From: Escherichia phage vB_EcoM_G17
Direction: 5' to 3' (one strand)
Sequence record: MK327931.1
Length of the DNA: 64,000 nt
Part shown: positions 18,516 to 61,855 of the stretch, in pieces
Position numbering within the stretch: the stretch's first letter is position 1
How the letters are laid out: each line of letters starts with the position of its first letter
The notes under the pieces: generated by a model
Database searches by the model: none
Seen by the model: only the letters and a program-made list of their open reading frames with translations
What the model was told of the DNA's origin: nothing
Made by a program: the position numbers and the translations under genes

Positions 18516-18992
18516 TTATTTTAGAATGTATAAGTGTTTTTCTGCATTGACCAGACGGTGATCAATGATTTCTTTGATAACGTTCCAGTTACCGCCGCCC
18601 AAATCGGCTCCAATTTTCGGGAAATGTACATGAACATCTCGATCAACTTTACAAAAATAATTTAGATGTTTGAACACATCGTCAATTGCATCATAACTGA
18701 CATATTTAGCACCGTCATTACCGTACATTTTTTGGGTAATACAGTTTGCAATAATCAAATTATCGTTAATTGCTGAATATGCAATTTGTCCAATTCTAAG
18801 AAATCCCATTTCCTTTTCATATGCTTTATAATCATCATATGCCATTGGGTAGCGATTCCTTAGTTCCTTTGCGAAACCAGAACCCATCTTACCTTGAGCA
18901 TTACATCCGTGAGCAATAATATGTAATGCATTTTGATCATCGGTAACAGTACTGAATAATTCAAACAGATTACCTCGGTGTTCATGAATCAT
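18516..18992 (-). CDS. macro domain protein (ADP-ribose binding or processing)
   Basis: ALHIIAHGCNAQGKMGSGFAKEL and GADLGGG resemble macro-domain phosphate-binding loops. Confidence 0.7.
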   Translation of the reverse strand: MIHEHRGNLFELFSTVTDDQNALHIIAHGCNAQGKMGSGFAKELRNRYPMAYDDYKAYEKEMGFLRIGQIAYSAINDNLIIANCITQKMYGNDGAKYVSYDAIDDVFKHLNYFCKVDRDVHVHFPKIGADLGGGNWNVIKEIIDHRLVNAEKHLYILK

Positions 18993-19041
18993 TATATTCT
19001 CCGAAAAGAAAGGACTCTGTGGTCAGAGTCCTTATTTTAAA

Positions 19042-19299
19042 TTATTCTTCTTCACCGAAACGGATTTTCTTTAATTCTTTTCGATGCTTTCTAGCTATTG
19101 TACTTTTGTGAAGTCTATTACTGCGTTTTGTGTCTTTTGTAATGTACCATGAATCTTCTGGTGCATCATAATCACAAAATCCATCTTCCGTAATTGTTCC
19201 TAAAAATGCAGATTTTTTAGGAATATTAGTTTGAGCTTTAGCCTGAAATTGACCTTTTGCTAATTGTTCACGAAAACTGAGCATAATAGTATCTCCCAA
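19042..19299 (-). CDS. hypothetical basic protein (85 aa)
   Basis: ORF, minus strand. Confidence 0.5.
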   Translation of the reverse strand: MGDTIMLSFREQLAKGQFQAKAQTNIPKKSAFLGTITEDGFCDYDAPEDSWYITKDTKRSNRLHKSTIARKHRKELKKIRFGEEE

Positions 19300-19330
19300 A
19301 TTGTTAAGAAGAACTTTTTGTTCTTCACAT

Positions 19331-19582
19331 TTATTTAGGGTTGCCAGAAACCTTCACATGTTTGATAAATGCCAAAATATCATCTTTACTAAAAGATTTT
19401 ACAATAAATTCTACAGCCGAATCATACTGTTCTTGTTTAGATAGATATTCTTTCATTTTGTTAATTTTAATCTGGGCTTTTTCTTTAGCTATTGAAATAT
19501 CAGGAATTTTAAACTCTACTCCCAACGTATCAGCTAGTTGTTTTGCACGAGATGATACTTTTTCAATATCCATTAGTTCCAA
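19331..19582 (-). CDS. hypothetical protein (83 aa)
   Basis: ORF, minus strand. Confidence 0.5.
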   Translation of the reverse strand: MELMDIEKVSSRAKQLADTLGVEFKIPDISIAKEKAQIKINKMKEYLSKQEQYDSAVEFIVKSFSKDDILAFIKHVKVSGNPK

Positions 19583-19821
19583 CGACCTTCTTTAAGACCT
19601 TCAATAAATCCAGTACAACCACCTGGTACATAAATGTCATTTACGAAAATTTGAGGAACTTGACGAACTGGTTCACCACAAATTTCAGACAGTTTTGAAC
19701 CATCGATACCTTCAGCAACAATATCTACAAACTCCATTTCAAATTTATTTTGTTCACATACAGCTTTTGCAGTGTCGCAAAATTTACAACCAGTCTTGCG
19801 ACCATAAATTTTAACTTTCAT
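19573..19821 (-). CDS. glutaredoxin/thioredoxin-like protein (NrdH/NrdC-like)
   Basis: Redox motif CKFC near N-terminus, ~80 aa, resembles T4 NrdC layout. Confidence 0.7.
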   Translation of the reverse strand: MKVKIYGRKTGCKFCDTAKAVCEQNKFEMEFVDIVAEGIDGSKLSEICGEPVRQVPQIFVNDIYVPGGCTGFIEGLKEGRWN

Positions 19822-19822
19822 G

Positions 19823-20224
19823 TTATTTCCTTCTATTTCTTTGAAAAGCTTTAACAGCTTTAATAATACTGTTACACATTCGTTCAGTCAAATACTTTTG
19901 ACATTCTCGTACATCAATGTACATGAACTTATCCAATTCTGGATGACTCTTACCATATCTATTAGTGTAAGTACTTTTACAAACTAATTCATCTGGTATT
20001 GGTTTGTCTTTGGCAGTATAAAAGAAAAGTACTAACCTTTTTCCCTTTCTATAGGATACATCACCAAGAAACAGAAGATCATCTTCATCGATTTCGTATC
20101 CTGTCTCTTCGAAACATTCACGTACAGCAGCTTCTTTGAAAGTTTCATTACCCTCAGCTTTCCCTTTAGGTAAATCCCAATGATTCTGTCCGTGTTGTAT
20201 GTCCGATAAGTATCTGACCATCAC
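19823..20224 (-). CDS. Nudix hydrolase
   Basis: Nudix box GKAEGNETFKEAAVRECFEETG; GTG/ATG start; short N-terminus. Confidence 0.75.
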   Translation of the reverse strand: MMVRYLSDIQHGQNHWDLPKGKAEGNETFKEAAVRECFEETGYEIDEDDLLFLGDVSYRKGKRLVLFFYTAKDKPIPDELVCKSTYTNRYGKSHPELDKFMYIDVRECQKYLTERMCNSIIKAVKAFQRNRRK

Positions 20225-20296
20225 GATAAAATATTATACCACAACTATAACGCATATCTTATCTCTTTGTCATCAATCGATGTTCAGATACTAATA

Positions 20297-20324
20297 ATTA
20301 TATCAGTTATTGGTTTTTTGTCCC
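20297..20324 (-). promoter_or_regulatory. sigma70-type promoter GGGACA-16-TATAAT
   Basis: Minus strand GGGACAAAAAACCAATAACTGATATAAT between CCA gene and Nudix gene. Confidence 0.45.
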
Positions 20325-20331
20325 ACTATTT

Positions 20332-21444
20332 TTAGAACATTTGTTTGATTGCTTCGTAACGAAGTTCACAAACAAAATCACGAATTTCTGACGTTTCAAG
20401 TTCACCATCTTTGACCATTTGCTGAATATCAGGCAATTCAACATCAGTATAACGATCATAAACTTTAATAATTAGATCTTCAAGTTCTAAATCAATTTCT
20501 TTTCGCAAAATGAAGTATTCCAAAACTTTATAAAGGAATTCTTCACCTCCGTTATTTTTAATATTCATATCCAATAAAATATTACCCATTTCAATAGGGG
20601 TCTTTTTACGGAATGTTTTGATATCATCACGGAAACGTTTGATATAATTACTAAATTTAACATACTTAACTGGAACTTTAATAGCACCGTTAAGTACTGA
20701 ATCATTATTTACTTCTTCATTTTCAAGAAGAATAGACCACAGAAAATATGGTTTATATACATCAGTACAGTTATCTGAAATATAATCAATAAGGTCTAAA
20801 TTCTTTTTGGTCAAAGATGTATTAAACACCTTTTCGTAATAACCAAATTTACTTAGCGTCTTAAGGAACTTTGAAGGCTTTTCTTCAGAAAATGATTTTT
20901 CGAATTCCACAAAAACACGGTCAGGAACAAGATGATTTAGCTCACCACTATTGACCATTCCAATAGCGAGTTCCTCAGTGCTTTCATGGATAGTAAAGTC
21001 TGAATAACGAGTAGCAAATCGAGCAAGACGTAACACGCGTAATGGATCTTCTTTAAAATGGTCAGAAACATGACGTAGTATCTTGTTCTTGATATCAGCT
21101 TTACCACCGTATGGATCGATGTGAATTTGTAGTACTGGATCATACGCAATTGCATTAATTGTAAGGTCACGGCGATACAAATCTTGTTCTAGTGTTACGC
21201 CTTTTGTATCCACTTCAAAGCCACCATATCCAGTACCAGTTTTACGCTCAGTACGGGCTAATGCGTGTTCATTACCTTCTGGACTTAGATATACTGGGAA
21301 ATCCTTACCTACTTGCTTATAGCCAATACTTTGCAAGTACTTAAGATCAGATTCGGATGCACCAACAATGACATAATCTTTGTCTTTTGCACGGATGCCC
21401 ATTAAACGGTCACGGACGTAACCGCCAACCAAATACTTTTTCAT
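20332..21444 (-). CDS. cca: tRNA nucleotidyltransferase (CCA-adding enzyme/poly(A) polymerase family)
   Basis: N-terminal GGYVRD, DKDYVI and RRDLTINAIAY motifs. Confidence 0.85.
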   Translation of the reverse strand: MKKYLVGGYVRDRLMGIRAKDKDYVIVGASESDLKYLQSIGYKQVGKDFPVYLSPEGNEHALARTERKTGTGYGGFEVDTKGVTLEQDLYRRDLTINAIAYDPVLQIHIDPYGGKADIKNKILRHVSDHFKEDPLRVLRLARFATRYSDFTIHESTEELAIGMVNSGELNHLVPDRVFVEFEKSFSEEKPSKFLKTLSKFGYYEKVFNTSLTKKNLDLIDYISDNCTDVYKPYFLWSILLENEEVNNDSVLNGAIKVPVKYVKFSNYIKRFRDDIKTFRKKTPIEMGNILLDMNIKNNGGEEFLYKVLEYFILRKEIDLELEDLIIKVYDRYTDVELPDIQQMVKDGELETSEIRDFVCELRYEAIKQMF

Positions 21445-53044: not shown

Positions 53045-53421
53045 TTAGTAAAACACGAATTATTACTGATAAGTTCATCAAGTACTTTTTGTACTTCGAT
53101 AGAATTAATATCAACTTTGTAATAATTATAGTTTTTAACTCTAAAATGTTCTTTTGATATATCAACTTTAAATTCAATAATATCAAGATTACCAATAAAA
53201 TCAGACTTATCAGTTCTTAAATCCAAAATACCTAATTCCGGTTTTTGTGGTTTACATAAAATCAAACCAAATTTATTTTCTTCAAATGCCTGATTAAACA
53301 TATCATAATAATCACTAATAACAAATCTAATATTATCAGTGCTTAACTTTCCTGATTTTCCTTTTTTATAAACAGAAACAATGTTTAGTTCAAAGGTTTT
53401 ACCAAAGCGTGTGATTTTCAT
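53041..53421 (-). CDS. hypothetical protein (126 aa)
   Basis: ORF. Confidence 0.5.
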   Translation of the reverse strand: MKITRFGKTFELNIVSVYKKGKSGKLSTDNIRFVISDYYDMFNQAFEENKFGLILCKPQKPELGILDLRTDKSDFIGNLDIIEFKVDISKEHFRVKNYNYYKVDINSIEVQKVLDELISNNSCFTK

Positions 53422-54389
53422 TTTGGGCTATAACCACTTTTAATTTTAGAAATTACTTTCTTCTCGAAGAACTTACGTGCTTCTTCAATAGTTTCGAATT
53501 CTTCACCATCTGTAGTACTGGTTTTACCAATAGCACCGTACTCAATAATTACTTCACACACTGGAGCATTCAATTCAATATTATAGAATTTGTTTGAAGA
53601 ACCGTGAACATATTCCAAATGTACATTATCAGGAATGTTCTGTACATAATCATAGTTCTTGAAGATAATATCAATCATATTTTCTTCGCCGCGATCAGGA
53701 AATAGTTCAGTATTATTCAGTACTAAACGCTGTGCAGCACGGAACATATCAAAATATTGTTCGCCTTTTTTCAGTTCTTTTGTATCAGAACAGAAATGAC
53801 CATAGTATTCTACATAATCATTCCAAGGATAAATTCCTTCATCAGCAGTTTCAGACACGTAAGTTTCATCTTGTGGAACTTTAAAACCACGAGTTTTTGG
53901 ATGAGAAATTAAGCACAGTGAAATATTATGACCGATATCTGAATCATCAGTAATACTACCACCAACCATATGAACAACATTTTTAATACTTTCAAAATCT
54001 ACATCTTCAATTTCATGATACATTAAATGTTCTTCAATATTACTTACTAGTAATGAATTACCATTTCCGGCATCGAATTCAAAAATGAAAAGTTCTACAC
54101 AATCTTCTTCTTTCATTTCAATAGTATCACTGAGTTTAATATACTCATTTTTTAATTGTTCAATATTTTCATGAGAACCAAAACTATAACGTGAACTGAT
54201 ATAACTACTACCGTCCAACCATCCCATATCCCAAGGTTCTTCTGACATGTATTCTGAGCTATAGAAATCAGTCAAATCATCTCTCTGAGTACAAACCGTA
54301 AGAGAACGAACATTACTAAGACCTTGAACTTCAAGATTCAGTACTGTAGTATTGCCAATTTTTTGTTCAGAAATAATTTTAGTTTTCAT
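53418..54389 (-). CDS. WGR-domain-containing protein (323 aa)
   Basis: C-terminal KFYNIELNAPVCEVIIEYGAIGKTSTTDGEEFETIEEARKFFEKKVISKIKSGY fits WGR pattern. Confidence 0.5.
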   Translation of the reverse strand: MKTKIISEQKIGNTTVLNLEVQGLSNVRSLTVCTQRDDLTDFYSSEYMSEEPWDMGWLDGSSYISSRYSFGSHENIEQLKNEYIKLSDTIEMKEEDCVELFIFEFDAGNGNSLLVSNIEEHLMYHEIEDVDFESIKNVVHMVGGSITDDSDIGHNISLCLISHPKTRGFKVPQDETYVSETADEGIYPWNDYVEYYGHFCSDTKELKKGEQYFDMFRAAQRLVLNNTELFPDRGEENMIDIIFKNYDYVQNIPDNVHLEYVHGSSNKFYNIELNAPVCEVIIEYGAIGKTSTTDGEEFETIEEARKFFEKKVISKIKSGYSPK

Positions 54390-56262: not shown

Positions 56263-56290
56263 TAAAAAATCCCTGCCAAAAGACAGGGAC
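56263..56290 (-). terminator. terminator-like hairpin plus T-run
   Basis: GTCCCTGTC-TTTTGG-CAGGGAT then TTTTTTAT on minus strand. Confidence 0.45.
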
Positions 56291-58090: not shown

Positions 58091-58150
58091 AAAACATCCT
58101 TGAGTTATGAGTACATCCTTGTACTCGACTAATGTTATTGACTCGGATTA

Positions 58151-58453
58151 TTACATATTTGGTTCGTATTCAACATAGCAACGTGAACCTCGAACCTTTT
58201 CTTCCCAGCACTCCTGGTAAACAAGTTGACCAATTGAAACTGGTTCTCTTGATAGTCCATTACGTACTTCACCATTTTGGGTTTTATACATAAATGAACA
58301 TTTGGACTCGCTACATTGTCCTAAACTAACAACTTCTGCGGTATTGTAGTGAATGTTGGTACGCTTAGTGTTCTCGTGATACTGTCCGAACCAAAGAACT
58401 CCTGCACCTAACAGAACAGTACAAATAAGACTTTTGATGTGTGTTTGAATCAT
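58151..58453 (-). CDS. small secreted or membrane-anchored Cys-containing protein (100 aa)
   Basis: N-terminal hydrophobic segment LICTVLLGAGVLWF; paired cysteines. Confidence 0.5.
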   Translation of the reverse strand: MIQTHIKSLICTVLLGAGVLWFGQYHENTKRTNIHYNTAEVVSLGQCSESKCSFMYKTQNGEVRNGLSREPVSIGQLVYQECWEEKVRGSRCYVEYEPNM

Positions 58454-58770
58454 AATGAGTTAAATCCATTGTTTAAGTATGTTTCAATATTAATTTTACC
58501 AACAGGATTACTACTGTGAACAAAGTACTCAAACGGTTCTTTAATATTATTATCAAACATATAATCAATAAGAAACTTAGCAAAAGAATATCCAGTCTTT
58601 TCGTCTTCGCTCACATCACCCAAGTCATGGTCGAATGATACAAATGCTGGAATTCCATTTTCAATAACATATTCACATGCACTTTTAAAGTCACGACATA
58701 CCACCATATCTTGGTTTGGATAATATAGATTTGCATCACGAATATCATCCAAAAACATTGAGTAAGACAT
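58450..58770 (-). CDS. receiver-like small protein, possibly CPR (cyclic-phosphate processing receiver) domain
   Basis: MFLDDIRD, SFDHDLGD and HSSNPVG recalled as CPR-like; recalled from memory only. Confidence 0.4.
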   Translation of the reverse strand: MSYSMFLDDIRDANLYYPNQDMVVCRDFKSACEYVIENGIPAFVSFDHDLGDVSEDEKTGYSFAKFLIDYMFDNNIKEPFEYFVHSSNPVGKINIETYLNNGFNSL

Positions 58771-58779
58771 GTTAAACTC

Positions 58780-59331
58780 CTATAGATAACTAATTAGTAA
58801 GTTTTCTTTTTGAACCAGATACTCCAATTCTTGTTTTGCTGTACCGATGAAGTTCTGTGTCATAAGATTATTATATCCCGCTTCTCGATTTTGTCCCTTA
58901 GAATAACGAGAAATATGACATAAATTTACACCAGCAACTTCTGCACTTGCATGTTTAGCATTAGTGTATCCATCTCTAATGTGTTTCAACTCGTCATAGG
59001 TTACTTCATAGCTAAAACTGTGACTGTTTGCACCTGGGTAAATTTCAAAAGTTTTGAGTGGTCGAAGATGGGAAACAAAAATATTGTAATCCATTTCTTC
59101 TTGAACTTCACGACGCAACGCATCTTCTAGTGAGATATCAGTACTTTCTACGGTTCCACCACATCCACCAAGAAGACCATCCCATCGTAATTGCAGTAAT
59201 ACTAAATTTACTTCTGGTATATCATTCAACTCATAGTTTTTGTAAGGGTTGCATTTTCTTGCAAAGAAATAACAAAATACAAAATTTGCACGTGTGCCAT
59301 ATTCACCAAAGGGAACTTCTTTAACACTCAT
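58780..59331 (-). CDS. Nudix-like hydrolase
   Basis: Nudix-box-like GGCGGTVESTDISLEDALRREVQEEMD. Confidence 0.5.
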   Translation of the reverse strand: MSVKEVPFGEYGTRANFVFCYFFARKCNPYKNYELNDIPEVNLVLLQLRWDGLLGGCGGTVESTDISLEDALRREVQEEMDYNIFVSHLRPLKTFEIYPGANSHSFSYEVTYDELKHIRDGYTNAKHASAEVAGVNLCHISRYSKGQNREAGYNNLMTQNFIGTAKQELEYLVQKENLLISYL

Positions 59332-60086
59332 TTCATACGTTCCTTAATTATAGTCTCTAGATGCGGTATTGCTTTGGTTGCTGGCTTGATAACTTTTTCA
59401 TTAAACAAAAAATCATTATCATTTTTACGAATGTTAACATTAACACTATAACATGGTAATGCTGCTGCTAATCTCGACCATACCAGTACTGTATCGCTAC
59501 TACCAATTACAATAACTGTATCATTTTCATTAAGAGATTTCAACACATTATTTCGTTCTTCGTAAATTGGTAAGCGAATACCATCAACATAACGATGATA
59601 TTCTCCAATCATTACTACATTTGGTTTAGCAAAAACATCATGTTTTGGTATGTATGGTTCGTATCCGCAGTTAATAACATTATAATCATCGGAATTGATA
59701 CTATAATTTTCAATAACTTCGCACAAGTTTCCATGAAGTTTAAGCTCATGACCACCAATACGAGTATAAAGATCGTCCATGTTAGAAGTCATATGAAGGA
59801 AGCAATCACCATATTGATCTTCTAACGATTTTATAAAATAATGCATTGCATTCGGTTCGCATTGTCCCAATTTTACACGTAATGTATTATAGAAAGAATG
59901 AACAACATGATATTTTGTAGTTAAACTAGCAATGTTACATACATCATTAATTTTAAATGTATCCCACAAACCATCATCAAATCGAAAAGGTTCCATACCA
60001 CTTTCAACAGAAAGTCCTGCACCTGATATAATCAGTAATCGCTTTTTACCTTCATTGCTTATAAATTTTTCTGATATCATATTCAA
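59328..60086 (-). CDS. Sir2 (sirtuin) family protein, no obvious zinc ribbon
   Basis: Rossmann motif GAGLSVESGMEPFRFDDGLW, TSNMDDL, catalytic-His region KLHGNL, VIGSSDTV. Confidence 0.7.
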   Translation of the reverse strand: MNMISEKFISNEGKKRLLIISGAGLSVESGMEPFRFDDGLWDTFKINDVCNIASLTTKYHVVHSFYNTLRVKLGQCEPNAMHYFIKSLEDQYGDCFLHMTSNMDDLYTRIGGHELKLHGNLCEVIENYSINSDDYNVINCGYEPYIPKHDVFAKPNVVMIGEYHRYVDGIRLPIYEERNNVLKSLNENDTVIVIGSSDTVLVWSRLAAALPCYSVNVNIRKNDNDFLFNEKVIKPATKAIPHLETIIKERMK

Positions 60087-60283
60087 TCCTTATAAAAAAC
60101 AATTAAATATATTGATAATAACAGAATGATTCCAATATGATAGGCATACATAAAATTATTATCTTTGTGATAACCATTGGATTTCAAGTCCCTATATAAG
60201 CATTTAGCATTGTTATAAATTACAACAATAGAAAAAACTATAAAAAAACTCAAAACCCATTCATAAATTGTGTATGCCATCAT
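60083..60283 (-). CDS. small membrane protein (66 aa)
   Basis: Two hydrophobic helices. Confidence 0.4.
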   Translation of the reverse strand: MMAYTIYEWVLSFFIVFSIVVIYNNAKCLYRDLKSNGYHKDNNFMYAYHIGIILLLSIYLIVFYKD

Positions 60284-60310
60284 CTATTCTCTCTTATAAT
60301 ATTAGTACTT

Positions 60311-60904
60311 TTAATATTTTAAAACATCAAACTCTTCGCTTACGCTTGTTACATTATCACTAACAATTTTAAAAATTGATTTGATACGTTCGTGTAGTGG
60401 TTTTTTAGATTCGTTCTCAACTTCAATATATGCTTGCATTGCTGCAATTGCATGATATGTCCCACTACCTACTGCGGTAATTCTTGTTTTAGGTTGTAGT
60501 ACTGAAAAGTCTTCTTGAACTTCATAGATTGTATGATTGTGGAGAATGATAAATTGTCCACCTCCTACATCTTGTGATGCATCTCGTGCACCCCATTCTT
60601 CTTTAAACATTTGACGAATAATTGGAATAACTTTAAGAACCAAATATTGTGAAAATGTTTGACTAGCATCTTGTTCAGGTAAATTAAGGTTATAATTTAA
60701 CAACTGACCCATACGAAATGATGTAGTATAACCCAATGCCATTACTTCTTTAGTTCTAGTTAGTCCATCATCATGTAACTTGATAAATTCTTTCTCGAAT
60801 ACCTTTGGCTCAGTTTGAACAGTTTTTGTAAATCCATTGCTTCCTAACTTATCCCCAGCAATAAAAGAACTTACTCCGTCAGTGTGTGCAATAATACAGG
60901 TCAT
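60311..60904 (-). CDS. HslV/proteasome-beta-like Ntn peptidase homolog (about 197 aa from ATG at 60904)
   Basis: MTCIIAHTDGVSSFIAGDKLGSNG aligns to HslV [24 protein letters not shown] with Thr after Met; ITAVGSGTYHAIAA aligns to HslV IAIGSGGPYAQAAA; ATGA overlap with upstream gene. Confidence 0.6.
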   Translation of the reverse strand: MTCIIAHTDGVSSFIAGDKLGSNGFTKTVQTEPKVFEKEFIKLHDDGLTRTKEVMALGYTTSFRMGQLLNYNLNLPEQDASQTFSQYLVLKVIPIIRQMFKEEWGARDASQDVGGGQFIILHNHTIYEVQEDFSVLQPKTRITAVGSGTYHAIAAMQAYIEVENESKKPLHERIKSIFKIVSDNVTSVSEEFDVLKY

Positions 60905-61161
60905 AAAATAGCTCCAATTGCAAATAATGTTGTGTATAAGATATAAATTAGTGCTCCTAACAACATTAGGCACACCAAGTATGAAGTTGATAGTACATAA
61001 TAAATTATTGCTTCGAATTTTGAATTGAACTTCATTGTAGTTGAATCAATAAAGCCATTACGATAATCTTTGTAAATGAAAACTGTTAGAAAAATAACTG
61101 TAGCATACATTACTACAGTAGCATAAAAAATAATAGATGTCAAGTTTTGGATGTTTGTCAT
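60901..61161 (-). CDS. small membrane protein (86 aa)
   Basis: Multiple hydrophobic helices. Confidence 0.5.
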   Translation of the reverse strand: MTNIQNLTSIIFYATVVMYATVIFLTVFIYKDYRNGFIDSTTMKFNSKFEAIIYYVLSTSYLVCLMLLGALIYILYTTLFAIGAIL

Positions 61162-61231
61162 AGTTATATAATCTCAATATAATTAATAACAAAGGAAGTA
61201 CATCATAATCATCCTGTTATTTTAATTATTT

Positions 61232-61855
61232 TTATTGTTTGACTGAACCGTAAAAAACCAGTTCTGGTTTTGTTAATATTACAACATCTTCACCACGAGA
61301 ACGACTAACTCTAAATAGAACTTCTGGTGGGATTCCATTTGCTGCATATAGTGAAAAAAGGAAACCTACCTTTGTTGCCATTTCTTCGGTAAAAGTTGAT
61401 AACTGTCTTACAGACACAAATGAATTATCACCATCAGTAACATTACTTTTAATCGAAATGTTATGAAGACCCAGTACTGAGCGATTTGTCATATATCGCT
61501 TTTCGGGAGATACACTAAAGAATACCACAGTACATGCTGAATTGCAATACCTAGAAACAATTAAATTTATCCCATTGTCTCTAACAAAGTTTGCCATTCG
61601 AATACCTGCATCAAAATCACCACCAGGAGATGTAATTGTGATGGTATCATAGTGTTCTTTATCATACAACTCTATCATACGCTTGAGTGACCCATCTGTA
61701 ATATCTGATATGAAATATACATTTCGGGTTTCAGGATTATACTTTATCACATTTTTACTTTCAATACCAGCACTGGCTGGAAAATTTATTAACAATAGAA
61801 ACATTGCTGCTTGTATCACTTCAAGCCATAGTCTTTTCATATAACAAGTCCTCAA
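61232..61855 (-). CDS. secreted ClpP/S49-like serine-protease-fold protein
   Basis: Signal peptide LLLINFPASAG; ITITSPGGDFDAGIRMANFV resembles ClpP INSPGG..AG motif; candidate Ser in CNSAC. Confidence 0.5.
   Translation of the reverse strand: MRTCYMKRLWLEVIQAAMFLLLINFPASAGIESKNVIKYNPETRNVYFISDITDGSLKRMIELYDKEHYDTITITSPGGDFDAGIRMANFVRDNGINLIVSRYCNSACTVVFFSVSPEKRYMTNRSVLGLHNISIKSNVTDGDNSFVSVRQLSTFTEEMATKVGFLFSLYAANGIPPEVLFRVSRSRGEDVVILTKPELVFYGSVKQ

Follow-up and report, generated by a model that had tools for sequence, protein, structure and literature searches.

A zinc-less sirtuin, a NUDT16-like Nudix hydrolase and a cREC protein as a candidate NAD+-consuming RNA-end or ADP-ribose processing module of Rak2-like jumbo phages

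The stretch of Escherichia phage vB_EcoM_G17 analyzed here (64,000 nucleotides of sequence record MK327931.1; hereafter, the window) carries three consecutive minus-strand genes, at positions 58450-60086, that encode a sirtuin, a Nudix hydrolase and a receiver-fold protein of the cREC family. An original prediction, made from the sequence letters, had placed three open reading frames (ORFs) at these positions, taken them to be phage-borne and proposed a candidate NAD+/ADP-ribose or RNA-end processing module. All three ORFs are present as described. Their phage origin is established by nucleotide identity: over bases 58100-60300, the window matches Escherichia phage Sharanji at 100% identity and, at 98.5-100%, the next 20 records of the PBECO4/121Q group of Asteriusvirus jumbo myophages, to which the source phage belongs. 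We read the trio, tentatively and at rather less than even confidence, as an NAD+-consuming module of a Rak2-like jumbo phage for RNA-end or ADP-ribose processing, in which the sirtuin would act in the manner of the RNA 2'-phosphotransferase KptA.

The neighborhood itself is already known, both from a published comparative-genomics prediction and from the annotation of its genes in identical GenBank genomes. The cREC domain was named, and predicted to process cyclic phosphates, by Iyer et al. 2021 (PMC7824862). A sirtuin-centered, NAD+-utilizing RNA-repair neighborhood was then described by Iyer, Burroughs, Anantharaman and Aravind 2022 (Viruses 14:1977; PMC9503650, section 3.7.3), who suggested a KptA-like action of the sirtuin on 2'-phosphates, with 2H, cREC, HAD and Nudix proteins resolving cyclic phosphates or processing the resulting ADP-ribose cyclic phosphate (ADPr>P). 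The module suggested in the original prediction, whose function is a predicted one, agrees with this proposal and with the genomic contexts found here. The window resembles configuration 1 of the 2022 study (Serratia phage BF), which is itself a prediction and not a characterized pathway, in phage group, in gene content and in the order sirtuin, Nudix, cREC and PIN protein. It differs in that Nudix and cREC are separated at an in-frame TAG and in that the 2H and NadV/NadM genes are gone. To the published account we add the zinc-less nature of the sirtuin clade, its phosphoesterase company in three lineages, a HAD-like residue set in cREC, and an Acb1/NARP2 context.

C1'' of NAD+ is the point of attack in sirtuin and Tpt1 reactions alike, and both proceed by way of 1'',2''-cyclic species. 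In the eukaryotic route for the by-product of tRNA splicing, Tpt1/KptA is followed by Cpd1 (a 2H protein) and then by Poa1 (a Macro protein), with Nudix ADP-ribose hydrolases in addition. In the model that we favor, the phage sirtuin would spend NAD+ to ADP-ribosylate a phosphate-bearing acceptor, namely an RNA 2'-phosphate at a broken or re-ligated tRNA or other RNA, as with Tpt1/KptA, and would release nicotinamide and ADP-ribose 1'',2''-cyclic phosphate. As an Asp-nucleophile phosphoesterase, cREC would open or remove the (cyclic) phosphate, and the Nudix protein would cut the diphosphate to give AMP and phosphoribose, so that no toxic or signaling by-product would build up and the building blocks would be returned. 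In sister genera, AMP and phosphoribose could feed the NAD+ salvage encoded by adjacent NadV/NadM genes, and the PIN-PhoH2 protein encoded downstream may supply RNA unwinding or trimming. The proposed logic (an NAD+-dependent transferase, an ADP-ribose cyclic phosphate, a phosphoesterase and a pyrophosphatase) would be that of the Tpt1/Cpd1/Poa1 route, but none of the proteins are homologous: the predicted stand-ins are a sirtuin for the ADP-ribosyltransferase fold, cREC for the 2H and Macro enzymes, and a Nudix protein of NUDT16 type. A role of Poa1p in the by-product pathway is cited in 10.64898/2026.01.28.702374, and T4 Pnkp is a precedent for the healing of 2',3'-cyclic phosphate ends by an Asp-nucleophile phosphatase (PMC3592404).

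We favor the RNA-end model because of the fusion of Nudix to cREC, the translational coupling of sirtuin to Nudix, the recurrence of the sirtuin beside phosphoesterases and RNA ligases, and the RNA-repair company of cREC. Further support comes from the presence of a polynucleotide kinase (PNK), an Rnl1-type ligase and a CCA-adding enzyme in the same phage, and from a complementary distribution of KptA and the sirtuin. The more specific claim, in which the zinc-less sirtuin replaces Tpt1/KptA on RNA, cREC is an enzyme, and the two together with Nudix make up a full phage pathway for the repair of RNA cleaved by host defenses and for ADPr>P disposal, is possible but doubtful.

In the window, the trio is part of a minus-strand run of tightly packed genes for a 66-aa ORF, the sirtuin, Nudix, cREC, a 100-aa membrane protein and a PIN+PhoH protein (Table 1). 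The original prediction spoke of 4-nt overlaps throughout the trio. Such an overlap, an ATGA, does join the sirtuin stop codon to the Nudix start; the Nudix and cREC genes do not overlap, being separated by the TAG and 9 nt. These two genes share one frame, and their junction reads TAT CTA TAG GAG TTT AAC ATG. Re-initiation is the simple reading of this arrangement, since the window has no tRNA genes and a strong AGGAG precedes the cREC ATG. Read-through of the Nudix TAG by a suppressor tRNA was considered and rejected on these same grounds. Laboratory supE strains are amber suppressors, and an amber-suppressor host would restore a Nudix-cREC fusion protein from this TAG.

The cluster extends beyond the coordinates of the trio. 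Downstream, a second ATGA joins the cREC stop to the start of the 100-aa membrane protein, and the PIN-PhoH gene starts 60 nt after the end of the latter. Upstream, the 66-aa ORF abuts the trio, its stop codon lying 2 nt before the sirtuin ATG; whether this membrane ORF is a member of the module is uncertain. The sirtuin ORF was listed with a TTG start at 60086 (59328-60086, 252 aa), but the ATG at 60080 is the more likely start, as judged by the AAGGA Shine-Dalgarno sequence 6 nt upstream of it. A terminator-like hairpin at 56269-56290, found in a promoter and terminator scan, hints at the end of the transcription unit. The promoter part of the scan was uninformative, with 39 promoter-like sites against 33.6 expected.

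By tblastn, the Nudix protein was found in 74 phage records, 70 of which are Rak2-like jumbo phages (Asteriusvirus, Alcyoneusvirus, Eneladusvirus, Mimasvirus, CBB, XbC2 and the Munch group). cREC occurs at 60% identity or more in 69 phage records and is adjacent to Nudix wherever both are listed. The order sirtuin, Nudix, cREC, membrane protein and PIN/PhoH is kept in all 12 Rak2-like loci examined, in which the lowest identities are 44% for the sirtuin, 50% for Nudix, 65% for cREC, 43% for the membrane protein and 70% for PhoH. The trio is thus co-conserved in related phages, across at least five genera of the Rak2-like group; a lack of such co-conservation would have told against the original prediction. 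Clustering is far beyond chance, given that some 70 records with protein identities of 44-65% share the gene order and that Nudix and cREC are fused in several of these genera. In GAP32, BF, CBB-like and other loci, the two form one 301-aa protein, which is gp120 of GAP32 and gp113 of BF. An Asp in the linker of these fused orthologues, 7-8 residues long, is aligned to the window TAG. In K64-1/RaK2, the two genes lie in different frames, with a 4-nt overlap.

Two metagenomic contigs extend the comparison. L100 (Nudix 47% identity) has the order NadM, NadV, Acb1, SIR2, a 103-aa ORF, Nudix, cREC and PIN/PhoH, and L101 (L101:5001-7309; Nudix 40% identity) has Nudix, cREC and PIN/PhoH. Orthologues of the 100-aa membrane protein follow cREC in BF, K64-1, GAP32 and related IMG/VR loci, but not in L100 or L101. 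The most constant neighbor of Nudix-cREC is the PIN-PhoH gene, which comes after cREC in every Rak2-like locus and in both of these contigs; its product has a partial NCBIfam match to 'RNA 5'-3' helicase PhoH2'.

Outside the Rak2-like group, the sirtuin clade recurs in loci with phosphoesterases. In the Vequintavirus JES2013, an Rnl1-type RNA ligase, a divergent cREC (E 5e-8), the sirtuin and an annotated pyrophosphohydrolase occur in this order, with a PNK-like AAA_33 kinase and a metallophosphoesterase alongside in divergent transcription. In the T5-like phage NBEco002, a HAD_SAK_2 phosphatase ('Swiss-army-knife RNA repair') is encoded one gene away from the sirtuin. These two loci are configurations 2 and 3 of Iyer et al. 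2022, which are confirmed here. With the Rak2-like loci, they place the sirtuin clade beside phosphoesterases in three lineages.

The company of cREC was examined in 45 dereplicated clusters of viral contigs outside the Rak2 group. Within 8 kb on either side, RNA ligases were present in 11 of the 45 and PNK-like kinases in 6; a phrog_547 phosphoesterase was found in 8 (directly adjacent in 3) and a phrog_335 phosphatase in 4. In Aeromonas phage 65, cREC is near a CCA-adding enzyme and an HD hydrolase, and in the bacterium Malaciobacter mytili it directly follows a metallophosphoesterase gene. A Pfam census of the two genes on each side revealed no sirtuin or NUDT16-like neighbor of cREC in these 45 clusters. 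This last result suits the view that the three are auxiliary genes with no joint function, which are neighbors only through the syntenic Rak2-like backbone: synteny among these phages extends to the genes flanking the trio, KVP40 has the sirtuin by itself, with no phosphoesterase-type gene next to it, and Nudix occurs alone in Aeromonas phage LAh_6. Such a view is very improbable in the face of the Nudix-cREC fusions in several genera, the overlapping start and stop codons, and the recurrence of sirtuin-cREC adjacency in the unrelated Vequintavirus phages.

The Sir2-, Nudix- and receiver-like assignments of the original prediction were borne out by profile, solved-structure and fold searches, with scores far above the Pfam thresholds, and PHROGs agree with Pfam for all three proteins. 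The sirtuin matches Pfam SIR2 (PF02146) with E 3.7e-20 and 73.1 bits (cutoff 24) over profile positions 1-178 of 180. Its closest sequences in PDB are E. coli CobB (6rxj/1s5p, E 3e-22), followed by Sir2Af and SIRT5. An AlphaFold2 (AF2) model, with a mean predicted local distance difference test score (pLDDT) of 91.7, retrieved the same proteins with Foldseek, CobB being on top (TM 0.77-0.86, E 7e-17). The GAGLSVESG, FR and GLW motifs and the catalytic His noted in the original prediction occupy conserved positions. Aligned to CobB are GAGLSVESG, FR, GLW, PN..H, LHG, VVMIGE, GSS and a terminal Asn, and T-S-N-M-D corresponds to the TQNxD motif with Gln replaced by Ser. The catalytic residue is His116 (of LHG), and N100, D102, H116 and G117 are invariant among 27 homologues; the NAD-site motifs are retained, as are the catalytic His, Asn and Asp, whose loss would have told against the original prediction. 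The lack of a zinc ribbon also held, as none of the four zinc Cys of CobB has a counterpart in the window sirtuin or in six phage orthologues aligned with it (from K64-1, BF, GAP32, a V5-like phage, a T5-like phage and KVP40), and the two Cys of the window sirtuin are not conserved. By alignment, the whole phage clade is zinc-less. It is represented in 974 phage records, including the T5-like and rV5-like model phages. In alignment and model, the window protein has a canonical sirtuin fold, an intact NAD+ site and the catalytic His, with no zinc module.

The remark that Sir2 domains in conflict systems are often NAD+ hydrolases proved inapplicable to this canonical CobB-like sirtuin, which matched no PADLOC model. 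A defense-type SIR2 NADase (ThsA, DSR1/2, SIR2-HerA or the type associated with prokaryotic Argonaute proteins) was rejected on this basis, with no PADLOC family at E <= 0.01 and a CobB-like fold and sequence.

Kinship with CobB raises the alternative that the sirtuin is a protein lysine deacylase serving host takeover and that Nudix, helped by cREC, clears O-acyl-ADP-ribose, a task that Nudix and Macro enzymes perform in cells. E. coli CobB and SIRT5 are nearest to the sirtuin in sequence and structure; none of the catalytic and NAD-site residues is lost, and the substrate-backbone loop VVxxGE is retained (VVMIGE); and GenBank records label the gene cobB or NAD-dependent deacylase. The Nudix enzymes Ysa1 and NUDT5 hydrolyze O-acetyl-ADP-ribose, which counts for the same alternative. 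We nevertheless consider it unlikely. Identity to the best match, CobB (1S5P/6RXJ), is 28-35%, and scores of 85-93 bits fall below the NCBIfam CobB equivalog cutoffs of 243-320. The zinc module, which builds the peptide cleft in known sirtuins, is without all four Cys in the whole phage clade, and the succinyl-binding Arg (Y+3) is Leu or Met in Rak2-like members. Moreover, the deacylase product has no extra phosphate, so that the recurrent phosphoesterase company is left unexplained by this role, and neither phosphoesterase nor RNA ligase partners are needed for O-acyl-ADP-ribose metabolism.

Rak2-like sirtuins also have a beta-hairpin insertion of about 10 residues in the small domain (residues ~162-171), which is present neither in CobB nor in the V5-like, T5-like and KVP40 sirtuins. 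In K64-1 (L003:4707-5444; RaK2 is similar), GNG replaces GAG and the FR and GLW motifs are lost, with His, Asn and Asp kept; from these substitutions, the Alcyoneusvirus (K64-1/RaK2) sirtuin may be impaired or re-purposed.

NUDT16 and X29 are enzymes of U8 snoRNA decapping and of inosine diphosphate and ADP-ribose hydrolysis. The window Nudix protein belongs to their family: it matches Nudt16-like PF22327 (E 8e-19, 68.6 bits; cutoff 27) and NUDIX PF00293 (E 5e-7), and among solved structures human NUDT16 and Xenopus X29 come closest to it (5wji, 1u20 and 2xsq, E 3e-12 to 9e-12). Its Nudix box, RREVQEEM, aligns to NRELREEL of NUDT16, RExxEE is kept in 138 of 150 family representatives, and a C-terminal NFIG(T/S)A motif is common to it and NUDT16/X29. 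As a phage protein joined to cREC by fusion or coupling, it stands apart from them, with an identity of about 30%. An exhaustive search of 1.84 billion representatives yielded 237 clusters (at 50% identity) for this small family, nearly all of whose members are metagenomic sequences; a word-indexed search had given 12 matches. Among metagenomic relatives, P0229, P0293 and P0268 have the NUDT16-like Nudix domain fused to Ham1/ITPase or to a RelA/SpoT-type HD_4 domain, which hints that the family may also act on non-canonical purine nucleotides or alarmone-like 3'-pyrophosphates.

Membership in an RNA-decapping family suggests another use, in 5'-end decapping and decay of host or phage RNA. Nudix would remove NAD, ADP-ribose or other nucleotide caps or 5' di- and triphosphates, the sirtuin would recognize or convert the NAD cap, cREC would trim terminal phosphates, and PIN-PhoH2 would degrade the RNA, for host shut-off or turnover. 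Poxvirus and African swine fever virus Nudix proteins decap host mRNA, and NUDT16 removes NAD caps, both of which count for this scheme. So do the specificity of the match (E 3e-12, against > 0.04 for bacterial Nudix structures), the resemblance of the PhoH part to the RNA 5'-3' helicase PhoH2, and the position of Nudix-cREC-PIN/PhoH as the most constant core, kept even when the sirtuin is missing. It is, however, distinctly improbable. The proteins are acidic; other contexts of cREC are those of repair, not decay; the role of the sirtuin would be purely speculative; and the Ham1 and HD_4 fusions suggest free-nucleotide substrates.

The third protein matches cREC_REC (PF20274) with E 1.5e-22 and 80.5 bits (cutoff 27). 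No solved structure matched it in a PDB sequence search, and a fold search assigned it a receiver (CheY-like) fold. D8-D9 come after strand 1, D47-H48-D49 after strand 3 and H85-S86-x-N88 after strand 4, at the positions that serve Mg2+ binding and phosphate acceptance in receiver domains. These residues are invariant or nearly so in 57 sequences, as is R11. The motifs LDDIRD, DHDLGD and HSSNPVG singled out in the original prediction are all found in cREC and include the invariant D8, D9, R11, D47, H48, D49, S86 and N88. Taken together, DxD, Ser, a basic residue and DD appear to correspond to the four HAD phosphatase motifs, as a HAD-like Asp/Ser/Arg set. The known similarity of CheY and HAD active sites is the ground for this reading, which suggests that cREC is an Asp-phosphate phosphoesterase and not a signaling domain. 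No histidine kinase was found in the annotated region. Homology of cREC to the HAD-SAK phosphatases was considered and rejected, with a profile-profile probability of 0.4%, so the two are analogous partners and not homologues.

Genes upstream of the trio in sister genera point to small molecules. NadM and NadV are located 2-5 kb upstream of the sirtuin in BF, K64-1, GAP32 and L100, and a 2H protein encoded two genes upstream of it (in BF, GAP32 and L100, not in K64-1) belongs to the Acb1 family, which acts against the cyclic-oligonucleotide-based anti-phage signaling system (CBASS), with matches to PF23474 (E 6e-16) and PDB Acb1 9q2g (E 4e-6). NadM/NadV, the NAD+ reconstitution pathway NARP2, counters NAD+-depleting defenses, as validated experimentally (10.1101/2024.02.11.579819), and from gene content NARP2 and Acb1 of the sister genera possibly form an anti-defense island. 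Elsewhere, cREC is one or two genes upstream of a Prs-like (PF14572) plus Nampt-like pair in L080:1130-4516 and L077:8007-15052, and 1.3-2 kb from NadM+NadV in L059 and L051. A Prs-like and Nampt-like pair is the signature of NARP1, and some phages carry the Macro phosphatase Adpp at that position. Within NARP1 operons, phage Adpp converts ADP-ribose-1''-phosphate, formed by RES-domain defenses, to ADP-ribose (10.64898/2026.01.28.702374). The contigs with Prs-like/Nampt-like pairs resemble the NARP1-AP operon (Adps, Adpp, Namat) of that study in placing a predicted phosphoesterase, cREC, beside the pair, but cREC is unrelated to Macro, and the window phage is without NAD+ reconstitution genes.

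It is accordingly conceivable, although on the whole doubtful, that the trio serves counter-defense and NAD+ economy. Nudix-cREC would dismantle ADP-ribose, ADP-ribose-1''-phosphate, or cyclic-phosphate or cyclic ADP-ribose species, stopping their toxicity or signaling and passing AMP and phosphoribose into NAD+ reconstitution, with the whole block as part of an anti-defense island and the sirtuin in a separate or regulatory role. The array NadM, NadV, Acb1-family 2H, Sir2, Nudix, cREC and PIN/PhoH in sister genera and L100, the demonstrated activities of NARP2 and Adpp, and the proximity of cREC to NARP1-like pairs and to NadM+NadV all favor such a role. Acidic proteins suit nucleotide substrates, and NUDT16, whose PDB entries the window Nudix matches, has been crystallized with ADP-ribose. 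On the other hand, an NAD+-consuming sirtuin coupled to Nudix fits an NAD+-sparing pathway poorly, adjacency in one syntenic backbone may reflect descent only, and NAD salvage genes are found near cREC less often than are RNA ligases, kinases and phosphoesterases. The window Asteriusvirus has lost NadV, NadM and Acb1 and keeps the trio: NadM, NadV and a GAP32/BF-type 2H have no homologue in the window, and no PBECO4/121Q-type phage is among the NadV orthologue matches, so that the trio is independent of these three genes. In addition, a lysate screen of 72 phages turned up only RyR-domain enzymes as cleaving 2'/3'cADPR (cyclic ADP-ribose), in a paper that does not mention jumbo coliphages of the Rak2-like group (10.64898/2026.05.28.727677). 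The aRES/Adpp and RyDEP preprints do not mention cREC or Nudix, and a phage sirtuin is discussed in none of three papers that were checked.

Several points weigh against the KptA-like, RNA-end model. After repair by the T4-type PNK/Rnl1 route no 2'-phosphate is left, and the 5'-phosphate and 3'-OH ends made by PIN nucleases require no healing of cyclic phosphates. No RNA ligase is adjacent to the trio in Rak2-like phages, and the 2H protein of sister genera is of the anti-CBASS Acb1 family, not a LigT-type RNA enzyme. Tpt1 is basic; the trio is acidic (pI 4.6-5.9 across sirtuin orthologues, 4.2 for cREC and 5.4 for Nudix), which weakly favors small-molecule or protein substrates. The cofactor loop of the K64-1/RaK2 sirtuin is degenerate, and the fusions of Nudix relatives to Ham1 and HD_4 point to plain nucleotide substrates. 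L101 has no sirtuin in the 5 kb upstream, where a 248-aa ORF is not a sirtuin, and Nudix-cREC-PIN/PhoH is thus the tighter core.

The distribution of KptA is also equivocal. With tblastn, homologues of E. coli KptA were found in 98 phage records. Escherichia and Salmonella phages are not among these, nor are the Rak2-like genomes (310-386 kb) in which the sirtuin occurs. A lineage effect alone could account for this complementarity, as an overlap of only about 2 records is expected when all phages are counted. In the KptA neighborhoods of three jumbo phages, cREC and Nudix were absent, and the only genes present were a radical-SAM gene and ones for hypothetical proteins. Finally, literature searches turned up no experimental study of phage sirtuins or cREC, and nothing beyond PMC9503650 and PMC7824862.

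Other genes of this phage are relevant to the setting of the trio (Table 1). An HslV-like protein and a protease fill the slot that NadM, NadV and Acb1 occupy in sister genera. The PNK and the Rnl1-type RNA ligase are encoded on the same strand, 16-19 kb beyond the sirtuin. A second ADP-ribose/RNA-end cluster, on the minus strand at 18516-21444, is located 38 kb from the trio and includes a glutaredoxin gene in addition to the macro-like, Nudix and CCA-adding proteins listed. About 2.3 kb downstream of PIN-PhoH is a gene for a protein with a WGR domain, the nucleic-acid-break-sensing domain of poly(ADP-ribose) polymerases.

Table 1. Features of the sirtuin-Nudix-cREC cluster and of related loci; positions are those of the window unless a contig or phage is named.
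Feature	Position	Strand	Evidence
Zinc-less CobB-like sirtuin, 250 aa	59328..60080	-	PF02146, CobB PDB matches, AF2, Foldseek
NUDT16-like Nudix hydrolase, 183 aa	58780..59331	-	PF22327, PF00293, NUDT16/X29 PDB matches, REVQEE box
Nudix/cREC junction	58771..58782	-	In-frame TAG, AGGAG ribosome-binding site, 9-nt spacer, then cREC ATG
cREC, receiver-fold predicted phosphoesterase, 106 aa	58450..58770	-	PF20274
Single-pass membrane protein, 100 aa, Cys-rich tail	58151..58453	-	phrog_14661 E 1e-44
PIN + PhoH (PhoH2-like) predicted RNA helicase/RNase, 479 aa	56651..58090	-	PIN_4 E 7e-20, PhoH E 7e-44
Predicted membrane protein, 66 aa	60083..60283	-	ORF list, sequence, weak PHROG membrane-protein match phrog_18969
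HslV-like protein and secreted ClpP/NfeD-like protease	60311-61855	-	phrog_1040 and weak NCBIfam HslV match (HslV-like protein)
323-aa protein, C-terminal WGR domain	53418-54389	-	PF05406 E 1e-10
Macro-like protein	18516-18992	-	PF01661 E 0.009, below cutoff; annotated macro in PBECO4
Second Nudix	19823-20224	-	PF00293 E 1e-12
CCA-adding tRNA nucleotidyltransferase	20332-21444	-	
PNK and Rnl1-type ligase, T4-style tRNA repair pair	L090:2977-5866 = PBECO4 82276-85165, just outside the window		
Acb1-family 2H genes of sister loci	L004:3936-4382, L002:3940-4386, L100:3366-3815		PF23474, PDB 9q2g

The genes of the trio are small, encode soluble proteins and are easy to assay, and their interest lies in the biochemistry of a zinc-less sirtuin clade, with about a thousand phage records, and of a putative enzyme with a receiver fold. 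The Acb1 and NARP1/2 neighborhood provides a new counter-defense context for the trio, beyond the published account. Should the counter-defense role be true, Nudix-cREC would join NARP1/2, Adpp, Tad and RyDEP as a new means of handling NAD+-derived products of bacterial immunity. On the KptA-like model, if true, sirtuin chemistry would extend to RNA and the receiver fold would gain a catalytic role: for the first time, action on nucleic acid would be known for a sirtuin and genuine enzymatic activity for a receiver-fold domain. Phage RNA repair against host ribonuclease defenses would also gain an NAD+-dependent branch.

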